Notes: generated from the sequence alone by a model not told the origin. Counted from the stretch's first letter, positions 2,960 through 12,123 are shown. The stretch is 32,000 bases of DNA from Candidatus Hermodarchaeota archaeon (GCA_048886185.1 JBHLKY010000004.1:30001-62000); one strand, 5' to 3'. Made by a program: numbers and translations.

Positions 2960-4309
2960 ATGCTTCAGATGAAAATCAGGAACCCACCTAGCGACCCAAC
3001 TAGCAAACCCTGGCGAGCCTCCACTGTACCAGGATCAGGAGAAGTGCCTATACGACTACAATTACTTTTATTTATGTCATCCGCTCATTTTATTCATCAT
3101 CTTGAACTTTATGCTTTTCCTTCTATGCTTATACTTATTTCCCAAGAAATTCCCTTGAGCTATTTAGAGATGGGGATTCTTGGTTCGTTCCCCATCTTAA
3201 TTATGGCAATTACCTCTCCTATTGTAGGGTATTTTGGCAATAATACTCGCCTCGGATTTTTCATTGTTTTACTTGGTATTTTTCTCTTTTCTTTTTCAAG
3301 TTTCATGATTTCCATTTCTGGGGATTTCTTTAATCTTTTGATAGGGAATATCTTATTAGGACTTGGTTGTACTACATTTCATCCTGTAGGTTTAGGAGTC
3401 TCAGCCAATTCTTTTACTGGGGAAAATAGAGGGAAAGCAATGGCTGTGAATCATGCAGCTGGAGTTATTGGTACTGCTCTCTCCCCTCTTGGGACACTTG
3501 GTTTAGCTATATATATTCTGGGTAATTGGAGGCAAACTTTTTTATTAATTGGTCTTGGATGTCTTATTGCCCTTATTATAATGACCAGTTGGGTAGTTTT
3601 GCAGAGATTAATTACCAGATATATGATTTTAATCCAAAAGGACGATCTTGAAGTTAAAGAAGAACGACCAAGTAAAATATCAGAAAATGATTATAAGAAT
3701 TGGATTATTCTCACATTGGGGATAATAATAACCATTAGTGCTCTTCGAGGGGGAGTCTATAGATTGATAAGTTACTTTACAGTCACTTTATTACGAGATT
3801 TTTACAATGTTGGATCATTTGAAGCAGGGGTAATGACCAGTTTTATATTGCTCCTAGGGTCTGGTAGTGATATATACGGAGCCTACATTAGTGATAAATC
3901 CGGTTCCTATGGAAGAGTGAGAATCATCTTAATTTCTGCTGTAGGCACTAGTTTAGCCATTTTAAGCCTTATTTTTATTACAGAATACTTTTCTGAAATA
4001 TGGGCAATCCTTATTGGATTCTCATTATTTGCTATTTGTTTCTACCTTGCTGGGGGAACTCTTCAAGCACTCATGAGTGATATTGTCCCTCAAGAAAGTA
4101 GGACGTTTTTTTATTCAATCGTTTTCTCGTTAGGATTGGTTGTTAGTTCTATTTCACCAACTCTTTTTGGAGCTTTATTAGATTTATTTCAATCACCAGT
4201 TGCAGGATTCGCGTTCATGCTTCTATTAATTTTTTCTTCCTTTTTTGTAACAATTTTATTTCAGAAACGATTATCCTTTGCAGTAAAGCATGATTTACTC
4301 TCACCCTGA
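2960..4309 (+). CDS. Major facilitator superfamily transporter
   Basis: About 12 hydrophobic segments; MFS-like motifs GAYISDKSGSYGR, TFHPVG and ENRGKAMAVNHAAG. Confidence 0.9.
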   Translation: MLQMKIRNPPSDPTSKPWRASTVPGSGEVPIRLQLLLFMSSAHFIHHLELYAFPSMLILISQEIPLSYLEMGILGSFPILIMAITSPIVGYFGNNTRLGFFIVLLGIFLFSFSSFMISISGDFFNLLIGNILLGLGCTTFHPVGLGVSANSFTGENRGKAMAVNHAAGVIGTALSPLGTLGLAIYILGNWRQTFLLIGLGCLIALIIMTSWVVLQRLITRYMILIQKDDLEVKEERPSKISENDYKNWIILTLGIIITISALRGGVYRLISYFTVTLLRDFYNVGSFEAGVMTSFILLLGSGSDIYGAYISDKSGSYGRVRIILISAVGTSLAILSLIFITEYFSEIWAILIGFSLFAICFYLAGGTLQALMSDIVPQESRTFFYSIVFSLGLVVSSISPTLFGALLDLFQSPVAGFAFMLLLIFSSFFVTILFQKRLSFAVKHDLLSP

Positions 4310-4314
4310 AAGGT

Positions 4315-5769
4315 TTAAGTTAAACCTCTTTCTTTTTGGGCAATAATTAACCATTCAGCTTTCATACCATTTGGAGACAGATTTTGTCTGCCTTTTAGTA
4401 AACGTGGTGAGATTATTTCATCATAACCAAATTCTCTGATACTCAATCCTAATTCTTCGAATATTTCGCAAAAAATTTTATGACAAGGAACGGGGTATCC
4501 TAAGACTGTTGGATTTCCAATAAATAGACCAAAAACTCCATTTTGTTTAAGAGATCGAATAAGCTTCTCGATAATCATGTACATGTCATAAAAATAATTA
4601 TAGATTAGTATGGTGTATTTTCCCACTTGTTTATATTTTGCGAGCTCTATTTTTTCAAGTTTTTCAGCAGTGGATATGAAAATCTCAATGTTTTTTAATT
4701 TATCTCTGATAAAATCAACATCTAAATTCCTTTTAGTACCTAGTTCTCTTCTCGTCAGTTCTCTTACTTTTAAATCATCTACTAGGTTCATCCAGTAGAG
4801 ATCAAGTTTTGTTGATCTAATATACTCTTGTGCATAAATATATGGTGGAGATGTTATAATTAAGTCAACAAATTCTCCATTTAAGGGAAATTCATATGAT
4901 GATACATCTTTACCACCCAAACAGATGATTTTCTTTTTATTTTTTTCTCTACTTCGGATATTATCGATATTCACTTCATATTCATACTCAGGAAATATAT
5001 TCTTCTCTCTAAGATATTCCGTAAGATGTTTCATTTGATTAAAGTATTTTAAGAGTATATTATGGAAAGTATCGTAAGGAATATTAGGATTATCCTTAAC
5101 TTTTACACGCAATTTTTTAATTTGCTTTTCCCTACGTTTTGATTTAAATAATTTTGGTACGTCACGTGCTCCATACGACAGAAAGCGAGAAACATATAAA
5201 GCAGTTATTTTTATCAAGTTTATGAAATCATCTGTATAGTTATCTTCTATAGAAAATATATAACCCCAAATATTTGCTAGAACCTCCTTAAACTCTATAG
5301 GATACCAATGGTCAATATTTTTCCACCTAGGATAGAAAGCTTGATCGTTTCTTTTCATTCTTTCAATAAATTTTGTTATATAAATCGTATTATATTTTAT
5401 ATCCGCTGATCTGTTATCTTCCTTCTCTAAGAATGTATCCAGCTTTATTGGAGTTTTATGAGTTAAATTGAAGGTAATCCGTTGAGTTTTAGCTTTTGTA
5501 AGGAAATTCGTTAATGGATTTATATCGAGACAGATACTGTTATGTCCTAAGCGTAAGGCTTCAATTGCAGTCGAACTACTTCCTGCAAATGGATCTAAAA
5601 TGATTCCATCCTTTTGTTTCAAAAACTTTGAAATAACGTAGTAAGGGACATGGGGAATGAATTTAGCAGGATACGAGTATAGATTATGTGTCAAATAGTT
5701 AACAGGGGGAATTATGTGACTTAAATTTTGTTTAAACGAATAATTTCTTATTTTCATATCCTTATTCAA
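4315..5769 (-). CDS. DNA amino-methyltransferase, alpha-type motif order (probably N4-cytosine)
   Basis: HNLYSYPAKFIP, then motif I DPFAGSSST near the N-terminus, catalytic TSPPY later, and a C-terminal FIGNPTV..VPCH segment. Confidence 0.85.
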   Translation of the reverse strand: MNKDMKIRNYSFKQNLSHIIPPVNYLTHNLYSYPAKFIPHVPYYVISKFLKQKDGIILDPFAGSSSTAIEALRLGHNSICLDINPLTNFLTKAKTQRITFNLTHKTPIKLDTFLEKEDNRSADIKYNTIYITKFIERMKRNDQAFYPRWKNIDHWYPIEFKEVLANIWGYIFSIEDNYTDDFINLIKITALYVSRFLSYGARDVPKLFKSKRREKQIKKLRVKVKDNPNIPYDTFHNILLKYFNQMKHLTEYLREKNIFPEYEYEVNIDNIRSREKNKKKIICLGGKDVSSYEFPLNGEFVDLIITSPPYIYAQEYIRSTKLDLYWMNLVDDLKVRELTRRELGTKRNLDVDFIRDKLKNIEIFISTAEKLEKIELAKYKQVGKYTILIYNYFYDMYMIIEKLIRSLKQNGVFGLFIGNPTVLGYPVPCHKIFCEIFEELGLSIREFGYDEIISPRLLKGRQNLSPNGMKAEWLIIAQKERGLT

Positions 5770-5832: not shown

Positions 5833-6876
5833 TTAAAAGAAATTTTGCAGGGTCTTAGTCTTGAGGTTGTTTTTCTTTAGTTGATGATGATAATCCTCTA
5901 AAAAAGGAATATGAAGATTTAATCTTTCTAAAGTTTCTCTAAGGATTTTTAATTCTATTTTTTCCTTCTTTGTGAATTTAAAATGTCCTTTCTTCTGGAG
6001 ATTAATGTATTCGATACTCTGACAATATTGGGATAAAAGAATTATAGCTAATTCCATGTGAGGAATAAGTACTGGAGGAGTATATTGGTAAGACTCCTCT
6101 AGAATTCTTTTTTTAATTAATCCCTTTCTTGGGAACTTTTCATATCCAAATCCTTTTTTATTCAATAATCTGGCAGCAGCTAAGGTCGTTCCTGTACCTA
6201 GAAACGGATCAAGAACAGTTGCAGCCCCTTCTACTAGTTTAATACATTTATAAGGCAGTTCTATTGGGAAGGGGGCTTCATGACCTTTCTTTATTGTTAT
6301 TCCTGTGGTTTTTAAATATGGAACTAACCAGATATTACCAGCATCTCTTAAATCTTCTTCAGAATATCTTCCAATATTTGATTTATCCACATAAGGAATC
6401 CCTATTTCTTTTGGATTCATATAATAGGTATTTTTATCTTTAATCAGAACAAAAATATTTTCCCACAGGTTATTTAATCGTCTTTCCCCACCACTTGGTG
6501 TATAATGCCCTTTGCCAAGGAAAGACTTAATCCAAATGATTGTTTGCAGACGATAAAATCCAGTTTTCACTGCAAGTTTTACAACTTCCTCACTAATCCC
6601 TTGATCTGGAGCAGCATCCCCAATATTCAAAAAGAAGATTCCTCTTGGATTTAGAACGCGATGACACTCTTTCCATACCCTTGTTAAAAAGCTGAAGTAT
6701 TCTTTTTTCGGTTTCTTATCATTATATTTTTCTCCTGAATCATCAGAGTAACATTTATTACGATTATACGGAGGAGAGGTAACAATAACATCTATTGAAT
6801 TATCTCTTATTTCATTCATCTTTTCCGAACTTTTATAGAACACAACTTGATTTCCAAAAACTTCACGATCTTCCAT
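5833..6876 (-). CDS. DNA amino-methyltransferase, beta class (m4C or m6A), with a C-terminal extension ending in a PIP-box-like motif
   Basis: IDVIVTSPPY first, then FFLNIGD, IIWIK, HEAPFP and VLDPFLGTGTT. A roughly 90-aa tail ends KTKTLQNFF-stop. Confidence 0.9.
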   Translation of the reverse strand: MEDREVFGNQVVFYKSSEKMNEIRDNSIDVIVTSPPYNRNKCYSDDSGEKYNDKKPKKEYFSFLTRVWKECHRVLNPRGIFFLNIGDAAPDQGISEEVVKLAVKTGFYRLQTIIWIKSFLGKGHYTPSGGERRLNNLWENIFVLIKDKNTYYMNPKEIGIPYVDKSNIGRYSEEDLRDAGNIWLVPYLKTTGITIKKGHEAPFPIELPYKCIKLVEGAATVLDPFLGTGTTLAAARLLNKKGFGYEKFPRKGLIKKRILEESYQYTPPVLIPHMELAIILLSQYCQSIEYINLQKKGHFKFTKKEKIELKILRETLERLNLHIPFLEDYHHQLKKNNLKTKTLQNFF

Positions 6877-7228
6877 TAACTTTCACTAGGTCAATTCCCT
6901 ATATACTTGAGACGGTTTATCCTTGATAAAAAGCTCTTTATTTTTAATTATTACGTTTAAAAATCCCTTTTTAAGTCTGTTTTTATTACTATATAAAATT
7001 GGTTGCTCTCTGCAAATCTAAATTGGTAATGATTGGGCTTATTTAAAATATTAGTTTGATATGTTATTTCTCCCTTAAAAAAAGAAAAAATTAATAATTC
7101 TCTTTTTTTTTAGGCTAATTCGCACGATTTCCGCTTTATCTCACATCAAAGGGCTATAAAAGGTGTCAATTTATGTGATAACTGAGCGAAATACTAGCTA
7201 TCGTGAAAAGAAAATATGCGTGAAAAAG

Positions 7229-7753
7229 ATGAACGAATCTCAAGAAGAAATTGAATTAAACGCAAAGAAAATAAGCGAACTATCACCTTTTGACAGAAAA
7301 CTTGAAGTTACTTTTGTTGTAATGGAAAAAGGTGAACCACGACAGATAACTTCTCGAAAAACAAATGAGGAACATACTTTAGCAGACATCAAAATTGGAG
7401 ATCCAACAGGAACAATCATCTTAACCCTTTGGGATGATACAATAGATCAAGTCACCGAAGGACATACTTACAAAGTTTCAAACGGATATATAAATGTCTT
7501 TCAAGAACATATGCGACTAGCACTTGGAAAATGGGGCTCTCTTGAAGAGACAGATGAAGAAATTACGTTAGATTCTGTAGATGAGGACAACGATCGATCT
7601 AAAGAAGTTCATGAAGATACTCGTAGAAGAAGGAGACCCCGTCGAAGCTATGGTGGATATAACCGTGGTGATCGTGGTGATCGGGGTGATCGGGGTGGTT
7701 ATTCTTCAGGTGACAGGGGTCGATCACGAGATCGAGAGAGAACTCGCTGGTAA
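7229..7753 (+). CDS. ssb: Single-OB-fold ssDNA-binding protein (SSB/RPA) with Arg/Gly/Asp-rich C-terminal tail
   Basis: OB motifs KISELSP, LADIKIGDPTGTIILTLWDD, VSNGYINVF and LALGKWG. The ORF track starts at 7163; ATG 7229 (MNESQEE), after GCGTGA, is the more plausible start. Confidence 0.85.
   Translation: MNESQEEIELNAKKISELSPFDRKLEVTFVVMEKGEPRQITSRKTNEEHTLADIKIGDPTGTIILTLWDDTIDQVTEGHTYKVSNGYINVFQEHMRLALGKWGSLEETDEEITLDSVDEDNDRSKEVHEDTRRRRRPRRSYGGYNRGDRGDRGDRGGYSSGDRGRSRDRERTRW
7664..7696 (+). repeat. 9-bp coding tandem repeat CG(T/G)GGTGAT x3 plus a partial copy (RGD-RGD-RGD-RG)
   Basis: Read directly in the ssb tail. Confidence 0.85.
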
Positions 7754-11079: not shown

Positions 11080-12123
11080 ATGAAAATTAATTTTCCTCAA
11101 ACTAGATATCAGGGAAGTAAATTAAAATTACTAAATTGGTTTCATTCCATTTTTAAAGAGATTAAATTTAATACAGTCTTGGATGCGTTTGGGGGTACTG
11201 GTGCTGTTAGTTATATGTTTAAAAGAATGGGGAAGTTTGTTACATATAACGATCTATTAACTTCTAATTGGTATATTGGTAAAGCTCTAATAGAAAATAA
11301 TTCGATTAAATTCGATCCGATAAAATTAGGATCGTTATTTGAGAAAAAAAATGGTTACACTTATCGTGTGATTATCCAAGACCAGTTTAAAGACATTTAC
11401 TATACTGATGAGGAAAATATCTTACTAGATATTGTGATACAGAATATTCATTGTTTGAAAGACCAGTATGAGAAAGCCCTTTGTTTTTTTGCGCTCTTTC
11501 AAGCCTGTATTCAAAAGCGTCCATTTAATCTTTTCCATAGAAAAAATCTTTATCTTCGATTGACAGATGTAAAGCGAAGTTTCGGAAATAAGAAAACATG
11601 GGATACTCCATTCCCAGAATTGATGTTAAGAGCATTAAAAGAAGGGAATCAAGTAATCTTTAATAATTCTAAAACTCATAGAGCGATAAACTTTCCTATT
11701 CTGGATGTATCGATTCCTGATGAAGGATATGAGCTAGTTTATCTTGATCCTCCTTATTTATCTTCTCAAGGGATTGGTGTAGATTATAGAGATTATTACC
11801 ATTTTCTTGAAGGAATATGCCATTATAATGAATGGGAGGATCTGATTGACTATAATTCCAAACACAAAAGATTGAAGATGATTGAAAATGAATGGAATGA
11901 TCCGAAACAGATCTACAATGCTTTTGAAAAAACTTTGTCTAAATTTCAAGATTATATAATTGTAATTTCTTATCGAGATCCTGGAATACCAAGTATTGAT
12001 GAATTGACGAATATTTTCCTCAGTTACAAAGAAAAAGTATCCTCACATGTTAAGGATTACAAATATGTCCTTACATCGAAGAAGCAAAGGGTGAAAGAGA
12101 TCTTACTTATCTCAAAAAAGTAG
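11080..12123 (+). CDS. Alpha-class (D12 / Dam-FokI-NlaIII-like) N6-adenine DNA methyltransferase
   Basis: RYQGSKLKL (motif X), DAFGGTGAV (motif I), YNDLL, YLDPPY (motif IV), YYHFLEG and ISY. Confidence 0.9.
   Translation: MKINFPQTRYQGSKLKLLNWFHSIFKEIKFNTVLDAFGGTGAVSYMFKRMGKFVTYNDLLTSNWYIGKALIENNSIKFDPIKLGSLFEKKNGYTYRVIIQDQFKDIYYTDEENILLDIVIQNIHCLKDQYEKALCFFALFQACIQKRPFNLFHRKNLYLRLTDVKRSFGNKKTWDTPFPELMLRALKEGNQVIFNNSKTHRAINFPILDVSIPDEGYELVYLDPPYLSSQGIGVDYRDYYHFLEGICHYNEWEDLIDYNSKHKRLKMIENEWNDPKQIYNAFEKTLSKFQDYIIVISYRDPGIPSIDELTNIFLSYKEKVSSHVKDYKYVLTSKKQRVKEILLISKK

Follow-up and report, generated by a model that had tools for sequence, protein, structure and literature searches.

What keeps a DNA methyltransferase of a Hodarchaeales-type Asgard archaeon at the replicating chromosome, if anything does? 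The question is raised by a gene in a 32,000-nucleotide stretch from Candidatus Hermodarchaeota archaeon (GCA_048886185.1 JBHLKY010000004.1:30001-62000; the whole stretch is called the window below), whose product ends in eight residues that resemble a PCNA-interacting peptide (PIP box). An earlier sequence-only reading had proposed the gene as a candidate PCNA-coupled methylase. Here, we computed the identity and fold of the methyltransferase, the conservation of its tail, the likeness of this tail to those of PCNA clients encoded in the same genome, and its recurrence on other methylases.

On these sequence comparisons the favoured explanation is that the tail is a PCNA-interacting peptide tethering the methylase to the clamp, with a rough probability of 0.6. 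It is favoured because the tail is conserved, because it matches the local clients, and because it recurs across methylase families. The earlier proposal therefore gains from a conserved tail, from local clients that mostly lack the glutamine of the textbook motif, and from five other tailed methylases of the same Pfam family (PF01555), four of whose families conserve the tail; that it holds across the methylase family in general is not supported.

A conserved terminal peptide behind a beta-class core

The translated open reading frame (ORF; 5833..6876 (-)) ends ...HHQLKKNNLKTKTLQNFF-stop, with the stop codon at 5833-5835, and its start codon is secure since an upstream stop lies three codons from the ATG. 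The N6_N4_Mtase profile, PF01555, matches residues 28-247 with an E-value of 4e-40 (138.5 bits against a cut-off of 26.7). SPPY lies N-terminal to DPFLGTGTT, which is the beta-class permutation, so the catalytic core recognised by the sequence-only reading is confirmed. Across 43 orthologues S34, P35, P36, Y37, D223, P224, F225 and G227 are invariant.

The AlphaFold2 (AF2) model of the full-length protein has a predicted local distance difference test score (pLDDT) of 78. Its Foldseek matches are CcrM (6pbd), rotifer N4CMT (8s9m), TTHA0409 (2zie), M.BceJIV, M.PvuII and M.RsrI, with E-values between 4e-15 and 1e-10. A profile of the 43 orthologues, compared with solved structures, recovers both N4-cytosine and N6-adenine beta-class enzymes (TTHA0409, rotifer N4CMT, CcrM and MboIIA), and the best sequence matches in the PDB are N4-cytosine enzymes. 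Together with the SPPY form of motif IV, these best matches suggest N4-cytosine (m4C) specificity. We take the window gene to encode an active-looking beta-class DNA methyltransferase, probably of the m4C type, whose activity is predicted.

Three loops (121-134, 161-180 and 186-201) have low AF2 confidence, yet their sequence is near-invariant in the 43 orthologues, as would be expected of DNA contacts that recognise one site in all of them. GTAC, the site of M.MjaV, a name that homologues carry in some records, is not depleted in the genome (observed/expected 1.01).

Past the core, the C-terminal extension comprises 100 residues (248-347), close in size to the roughly 90 estimated earlier. 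AF2 places helices at 251-260, 271-285, 290-295, 303-318 and 324-339, with pLDDT about 90, and in the 43 orthologues P272 and H273 are invariant and a KKEK stretch is conserved. No Pfam family is found on the helical extension at E-values up to 1. A structural search with the extension alone gives a best VIA-align Z of 4.6 among 48,161 PDB representatives, and TM scores below 0.5 in the ESM Atlas; such weak matches, coming from sequence and structure searches, do not make the fold new.

Over the final three ten-residue blocks of the full-length model the pLDDT falls from 92 to 69 to 45, and residues 339-347 are unpacked, with pLDDT below 50. The linker ahead of the motif differs by up to 9 residues in length between orthologues and is variable in sequence, and 33% of it is K or R, against 14% of the whole protein. 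The motif itself reads from the translation just as the sequence-only reading had it, at 5836-5859 with the leucine and both phenylalanines in register: T340 stands at position 1 in place of Q, L343 at position 4, and F346 and F347 at positions 7-8.

For homologues, the tail was scored as L..[FY][FLIY] within the 16 C-terminal residues, and the null expectation was obtained from 500 shuffles of the last 60 residues. By this test 54 of the 116 full-length homologues carry the motif, whereas the shuffled sets average 4.6 and never exceed 14, and within the genus 13 of 14 orthologues keep it. When the 43 closest orthologues are aligned, L343 reaches 90% conservation or more, against a drifting linker. 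Conservation of the terminal motif, which had been named as a check on the proposal, is thus clear in these groups; it fails in Lokiarchaeial and several other orthologues, to which we return below.

The consensus of the 54 motif-bearing orthologues is [KR]-x-x-x-L-T-K-F-[LF]. K or R stands directly ahead of the motif in 42 of them. Of the two hydrophobic positions at its end, 7 holds F (45 sequences) or Y (9), and 8 is filled by L, F or I. Between 0 and 8 residues follow the motif in the homologues, a spread that would suit a PIP box and not a C-terminal anchor of the HbYX type. All homologues are Asgard: those from Hodarchaeales/Heimdall are 60-75% identical to the window protein, and those from Loki, Thor, Odin, Hel and Hermod about 55-60%. 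The matches include records from Prometheoarchaeum and Lokiarchaeum.

Tails of PCNA clients and of other methylases

A stricter definition of the tail, L-[polar]-[polar]-[FYW]-[FLMWYI] in the last 11 residues, was applied to all crude non-overlapping ORFs of the genome, and the ORFs carrying it were annotated by Pfam. Of the 80 ORFs with this tail, 18 or more encode DNA-transaction proteins, see Table 1. In addition, RNase HII has SKTLENYF nine residues from its end, nearly the TKTLQNFF of the methylase. RFC-L, PolB, NreA, Ogt and RNase HII of this genome are also without Q at position 1, and since Q is the exception among its PCNA clients the T of the methylase is unremarkable. No C-terminal motif is found in the DNA ligase and the PolD DP2 of this genome.

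The genome has one PCNA gene, encoding a protein of 286 residues (P0121) with an acidic C-terminal tail. This tail, an extension of about 35 residues made almost purely of E and D with W and Y (gene at C9:117111-118010), is conserved in the genus, and the gene for the RFC large subunit lies about 1 kb downstream. The acidic tail of PCNA might pair with the K-rich linkers ahead of the PIP-like motifs of its clients.

Other annotated ORFs with the strict tail include Sir2, HDAC, a Rag-like GTPase and Cdc48. The end of Cdc48, ..LKDYL, is most likely an HbYX proteasome-docking motif rather than a PIP box, and that the same scan picks it up lends something to the idea that the methylase docks on a different hub: the proteasome or a Cdc48-type ATPase, or a replisome protein such as SSB, whose gene is its conserved divergent neighbour. 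HbYX requires a penultimate Tyr at a free C-terminus. The methylase ends N-F-F, and up to 8 residues often follow the motif in its orthologues, so we rejected the proteasome-docking version. We know of no SSB-binding motif of a TKTLQNFF-like form. Moreover, the tail is common to the classical PCNA clients (PolB, RFC-L, Fen1, NreA, RNase HII and DinB), not to proteasome substrates, and docking on another hub appears very improbable.

The tail is not confined to one methylase. About 27 ORFs of the genome carry PF01555, an unusually large methylase load, and 6 of these 27 have the strict tail, an enrichment over the full set of 3741 ORFs, of which 80 have it (hypergeometric P 1.6e-5). Four families besides that of the window gene conserve the tail, and their extensions are different or absent. 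In the family of C23:5727 the closest homologues mostly end in a canonical KQSTLEK[FY]L, variants from Sigyn, Loki and Hel have the forms KKSSLDAFM, DLTTFL and SLTQFL, and distant homologues ending ..WDEPVERRGL are without the tail.

For the sixth tailed methylase (C1:179413) the nearest representatives are at most 53% identical and often longer fusion proteins, and the tail is found in 4 of 150, the background rate; here it may be due to chance. The long multidomain PF01555 methylases, a 484-residue methylase next to the window gene and the D12 methylase of the window have no such tail. That the tail recurs on unrelated methylase families, and is kept by selection in each, is in our judgement the strongest argument for a functional docking peptide.

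Several observations weigh against docking. Position 1 is T and not the textbook Q, and Q is found in just 4 of the 54 motif-bearing orthologues. The strict tail occurs on 2.1% of the ORFs (80/3741), so that a single occurrence proves nothing, and it is also seen on unrelated enzymes such as UbiD, an aminoacyl-tRNA synthetase, a glycosidase and hydrolases. The orthologues of several other families are without such a tail. Further, the gene itself is patchy: at E 1e-60 it is found in 33 of 301 genomes of the phylum, and within the genus in 14 of 20. An Asgard-wide core gene is ruled out by the count for the phylum.

Lokiarchaeial orthologues add another difficulty, as they end QTKLDF (more fully [FY]-[RH]-Q-[TK]-K-L-D-F), in which the spacing from L to F is one residue too short for a PIP box. 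Fen1 (QVSLDSFF) and NreA (QRTIDNFL) of these genomes are canonical, unlike the methylase tail, and the docking reading is weaker for this clade for that reason. We also considered whether the type of methylase tail co-varies with the PIP type of the lineage, and for the Lokiarchaeial clade this failed.

The Lokiarchaeial tail is strongly conserved in its own right, as K-[YF]-[RH]-Q-T-K-L-D-F(-E-S): Q-x-x-L is as in a PIP box, but the aromatic residue follows one position too soon. As a whole this tail is closer to the bacterial beta-clamp motif, QL[SD]LF, than to the canonical PIP boxes that these genomes also encode.

The last points against docking are structural. When the extension is modelled alone, its last helix (79-99 of 102 residues, pLDDT about 60) continues into the motif, and the linker of the window protein is the shortest in its clade; the peptide may for these two reasons be less free than in the orthologues. 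A co-fold of PCNA (1-256) with the tail of the methylase (296-347), run without controls, scored 0.42, 0.23 and 0.22 (mark 0.32); we count it neither for nor against docking.

It could be argued that the tail is no docking peptide but the place where the final helix of the C-terminal module frays, conserved by packing on the protein or on DNA, and that its likeness to a PIP box is coincidental. The helix that runs through L343 in the model of the extension, the roughly 2% of ORFs that end in this way by chance and a position 1 that is not Q would all fit. However, in the full-length model the same residues are unpacked and of low confidence, and a distance between module and motif that varies by up to 9 residues, with 0 to 8 residues trailing, is hard to fit to fixed packing. 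Nor would a helix end account easily for four other methylase families that have the same terminal motif on different extensions or on none. We consider this explanation unlikely.

PIP-like ends were also seen on proteins outside the groups above. Two neighbouring genes at C18:28137-29914 encode a radical-SAM protein with helix-hairpin-helix motifs and a DUF4130 protein; their ends are ..RIREFFQ and ..KKLDEFFE, and judging from these sequences the two may be a PCNA-linked pair for DNA repair or modification. A DUF72 protein of 275 residues (C4:74601-75428) has a near-canonical PIP box, ..KRQMSLKDFF. The Sir2-family deacetylase (C7:59863-60579) ends ..KTLPNYFSS and the protein of the histone-deacetylase family (C8:157328-158371) ends ..KILKNYWEL; these two tails may be accidental, or may connect chromatin enzymes with the clamp.

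The locus and a possible role behind the fork

If docking is correct, the final eight residues, carried on a short basic tail of low model confidence behind the helical extension, would serve as the peptide that contacts PCNA. The hydrophobic pocket beneath the interdomain connecting loop of the single, homotrimeric PCNA would receive L343, F346 and F347. The methylase would in this way be tethered to clamps that remain on newly replicated DNA, and its sites could regain their methylation as soon as the fork has passed; or the enzyme might instead scan DNA from the sliding clamp. PCNA binding, the moment of methylation with respect to replication, and any effects on rate or processivity are what we infer here. 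None of the sequence features examined speaks to a preference for hemimethylated DNA, the "maintenance-like" element of the sequence-only reading.

The surroundings of the gene are replication-linked. The ssb gene is transcribed divergently from the methylase gene, in agreement with what had been read earlier, and it adjoins the orthologue in 10 of the 13 other genus loci examined; we count this conserved pairing in favour of docking. Pfam also identifies a PAS protein (1618-2916), an MFS protein (2960-4309), a second methylase, LKR and SDH as neighbours in the window. Most genomes of the genus have, besides ssb, the flanking LKR/SDH and MFS genes next to the orthologue, and from this conserved synteny the methylase is a stable chromosomal resident, not a recent mobile insert. 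The sequencing runs that contain the stretch, probably its source samples, are of sediment-metagenome DNA only and have no bearing on expression.

Table 1. Features of the methylase locus, strict-tail ORFs with DNA-transaction domains by Pfam, and strict-tail PF01555 methylases of the genome. The first nine positions are those of the window.
Feature	Position	Strand	C-terminal tail	Basis or conservation
Whole gene: beta-class N4/N6 DNA methyltransferase, 347 aa, with C-terminal extension and PIP-like tail	5833..6876	-		ORF and Pfam PF01555
Catalytic core, residues 28-247	6136..6795	-		Pfam envelope
Motif IV SPPY, residues 34-37	6766-6777	-		Translation
Motif I DPFLGTGTT, residues 223-231	6184-6210	-		Translation
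Helical C-terminal extension, residues 248-332, ~85 aa	5881..6135	-		AF2 helices
Basic linker L-K-K-N-N-L-K, residues 333-339	5860..5880	-		pLDDT drop and orthologue alignment
PIP-like motif, residues 340-347, extreme C-terminus	5836..5859	-	T-K-T-L-Q-N-F-F	Translation
Second methyltransferase, 484 aa, 63 bp downstream	4315..5769	-	Without PIP-like tail	Pfam and translation
ssb, Ssb-like OB fold with RG/RD-rich tail	7163..7753	+		Pfam PF21473, E 7e-15
PolB, first gene			..DMTLESFF	
PolB, second gene			..QVNLMEFFG	
RFC large subunit (RFC-L), encoded beside PCNA			..EKKLTDYF	
Fen1			..QQALDKFF	
NreA			..RKTLDAYF	
DinB			..QLTLMPFLSHRA	
Ogt			..KKSLTEFM	
RadA-like protein			Motif present	
HhH-GPD glycosylase			Motif present	
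ExoIII-family nuclease			Motif present	
Hel308-type helicase with LAGLIDADG-domain intein	C36:18567-22337		..VELDDYIF	
PF01555 methylase, SPPY (window gene)	C4:35833		..KTLQNFF	13/14 in genus
PF01555 methylase, DPPF	C23:5727		..KQSTLESYLE	60/60 closest homologues
PF01555 methylase, SPPY	C5:5485		..PKLTDYLE	12/12 in genus, flanks changing
PF01555 methylase, DPPF	C9:191608		..SNLDSWLVTTKK	18/18 in genus
PF01555 methylase, SPPY	C19:50683		..TNLDQFFNTS	11/17 orthologues; rest end earlier
PF01555 methylase, DPPY	C1:179413		..INLDSFL	No close orthologues

The sequence-only reading had also stated that no cognate endonuclease is nearby. In agreement with this, Pfam recognises no nuclease domain within about 4 kb on either side of the methylase, a result limited to recognised families and to this locus. 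The picture of a lone orphan methylase is not supported, however, as the sequence-only reading had missed the second methylase immediately downstream. In this 484-residue protein motif I (DPFAGSSST) is near the N-terminus and SPPY follows about 240 residues later; because motif I comes ahead of SPPY, its circular permutation differs from that of its neighbour. Within the genus, 5 further genomes also have this methylase downstream of the orthologue, and the two enzymes may be a pair that methylates an asymmetric site. Elsewhere in the window, at 11080-12123 (+), a D12-class (Dam-like) N6-adenine methyltransferase of 347 residues ends ..KEILLISKK.

The second methylase bears on a further explanation, that the window gene encodes the modification component in a restriction-modification or defence module, perhaps as a partner of the 484-residue methylase on an asymmetric site, and that its tail is irrelevant to replication coupling. 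The number of PF01555 genes in the genome and the patchy distribution of the family across the phylum would agree with this. Further, CCGG is under-represented in the genome, with an observed/expected ratio of 0.40 in a second-order Markov model compared with 0.84-1.26 for the other 4-bp palindromes, and such avoidance points to restriction pressure.

What argues against a restriction-modification module is the absence of a recognised nuclease in the flanks (one of an unfamiliar family, or encoded at a distance, is possible) and the synteny conserved in the genus with ssb, LKR/SDH and MFS. The explanation also leaves the conservation of the tail unaccounted for, and it is not exclusive, as a methylase of such a module would gain from a PCNA tether as well. 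All in all, it seems to us distinctly unlikely.

Returning to docking, the recurrence of the tail allows a wider, more tentative proposal, which we would place somewhat short of even odds: PCNA tethering may be the general organisation of DNA methylation in Hodarchaeales-type Asgard archaea. At least five vertically inherited beta-class families, with both m4C-type SPPY and N6-methyladenine (m6A)-type DPP[YF] motifs, would each independently have a C-terminal PIP box, and the clamp behind the fork would be the platform on which the whole methylome is restored.

Comparison with known systems

The proposed mechanism would be that of archaeal C-terminal PIP clients generally, and it is the cargo that is unusual. 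As in Fen1, RFC-L, PolB, RNase HII and NreA, the peptide sits at the very end of the protein behind a basic stretch that may be flexible, and has an aliphatic residue at position 4 and aromatic or hydrophobic residues at positions 7-8; it is almost identical to the SKTLENYF of RNase HII and the DMTLESFF of PolB in this genome. It differs from these clients in that the cargo is a DNA methyltransferase, that T replaces Q, and that docking is predicted from sequence. DNA methyltransferases are not listed among the archaeal PCNA partners in the review by MacNeill (PMC4929162), which does report an adenine methylase of P. abyssi that co-purified with NucS and PCNA. Our literature search returned no description of an archaeal DNA methyltransferase with a PIP box; its coverage is incomplete and this is not proof of novelty.

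The restoration of methylation coupled to PCNA is regarded as a eukaryotic feature, exemplified by DNMT1 and the ciliate AMT6, and the finding touches the origin of replication-coupled epigenetic inheritance. If docking is true, a PCNA tail would be present on prokaryote-type amino-methyltransferases of several families in the archaeal lineage nearest to eukaryotes, and the coupling principle would be older than the eukaryotic enzymes or independently evolved from them. DNA methyltransferases would also become a new cargo class in the archaeal PCNA interactome, and tethering would explain how sites behind the fork are protected in a genome with about 27 methylase genes.

DNMT1 is the eukaryotic C5-cytosine maintenance methyltransferase; an N-terminal PIP box tethers it to PCNA, methylation thereby follows the fork, and the enzyme has an intrinsic preference for hemimethylated DNA as well as the UHRF1 pathway. 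What the window protein would share with it is being a DNA methyltransferase with a tether to PCNA, here a putative one. The two differ in that one is a beta-class amino-methyltransferase and the other belongs to the C5 superfamily, and in that the PIP box of DNMT1 is internal, in the N-terminal part of a large multidomain protein.

In structure, the best match is CcrM of Caulobacter (6pbd, Foldseek E 4e-15, 301 aligned columns). Like the window methylase, CcrM, an orphan methyltransferase, is beta-class, conserved and chromosomally stable, with a C-terminal extension past the core. In contrast to the window methylase, CcrM is bacterial and an N6-adenine enzyme (DPPY). The extension of the window protein, searched alone, has no detectable likeness to solved domains, and for CcrM we know of no clamp-binding motif.

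Another parallel comes from Tetrahymena. There, the PIP box of AMT6, EKKITDFFKR, also lacks the glutamine; it recruits an amino-methyltransferase complex to PCNA and starts the maintenance of 6mA after replication (2025; PMC11761967). Unlike the window methylase, AMT6 belongs to MT-A70 and not to PF01555, its PIP box is in an internal loop, and it works in a multi-subunit complex on chromatin. Even so, EKKITDFFKR resembles two tails of the archaeal genome studied here, EKKLTDYF of RFC-L and PKLTDYLE of the methylase at C5:5485.

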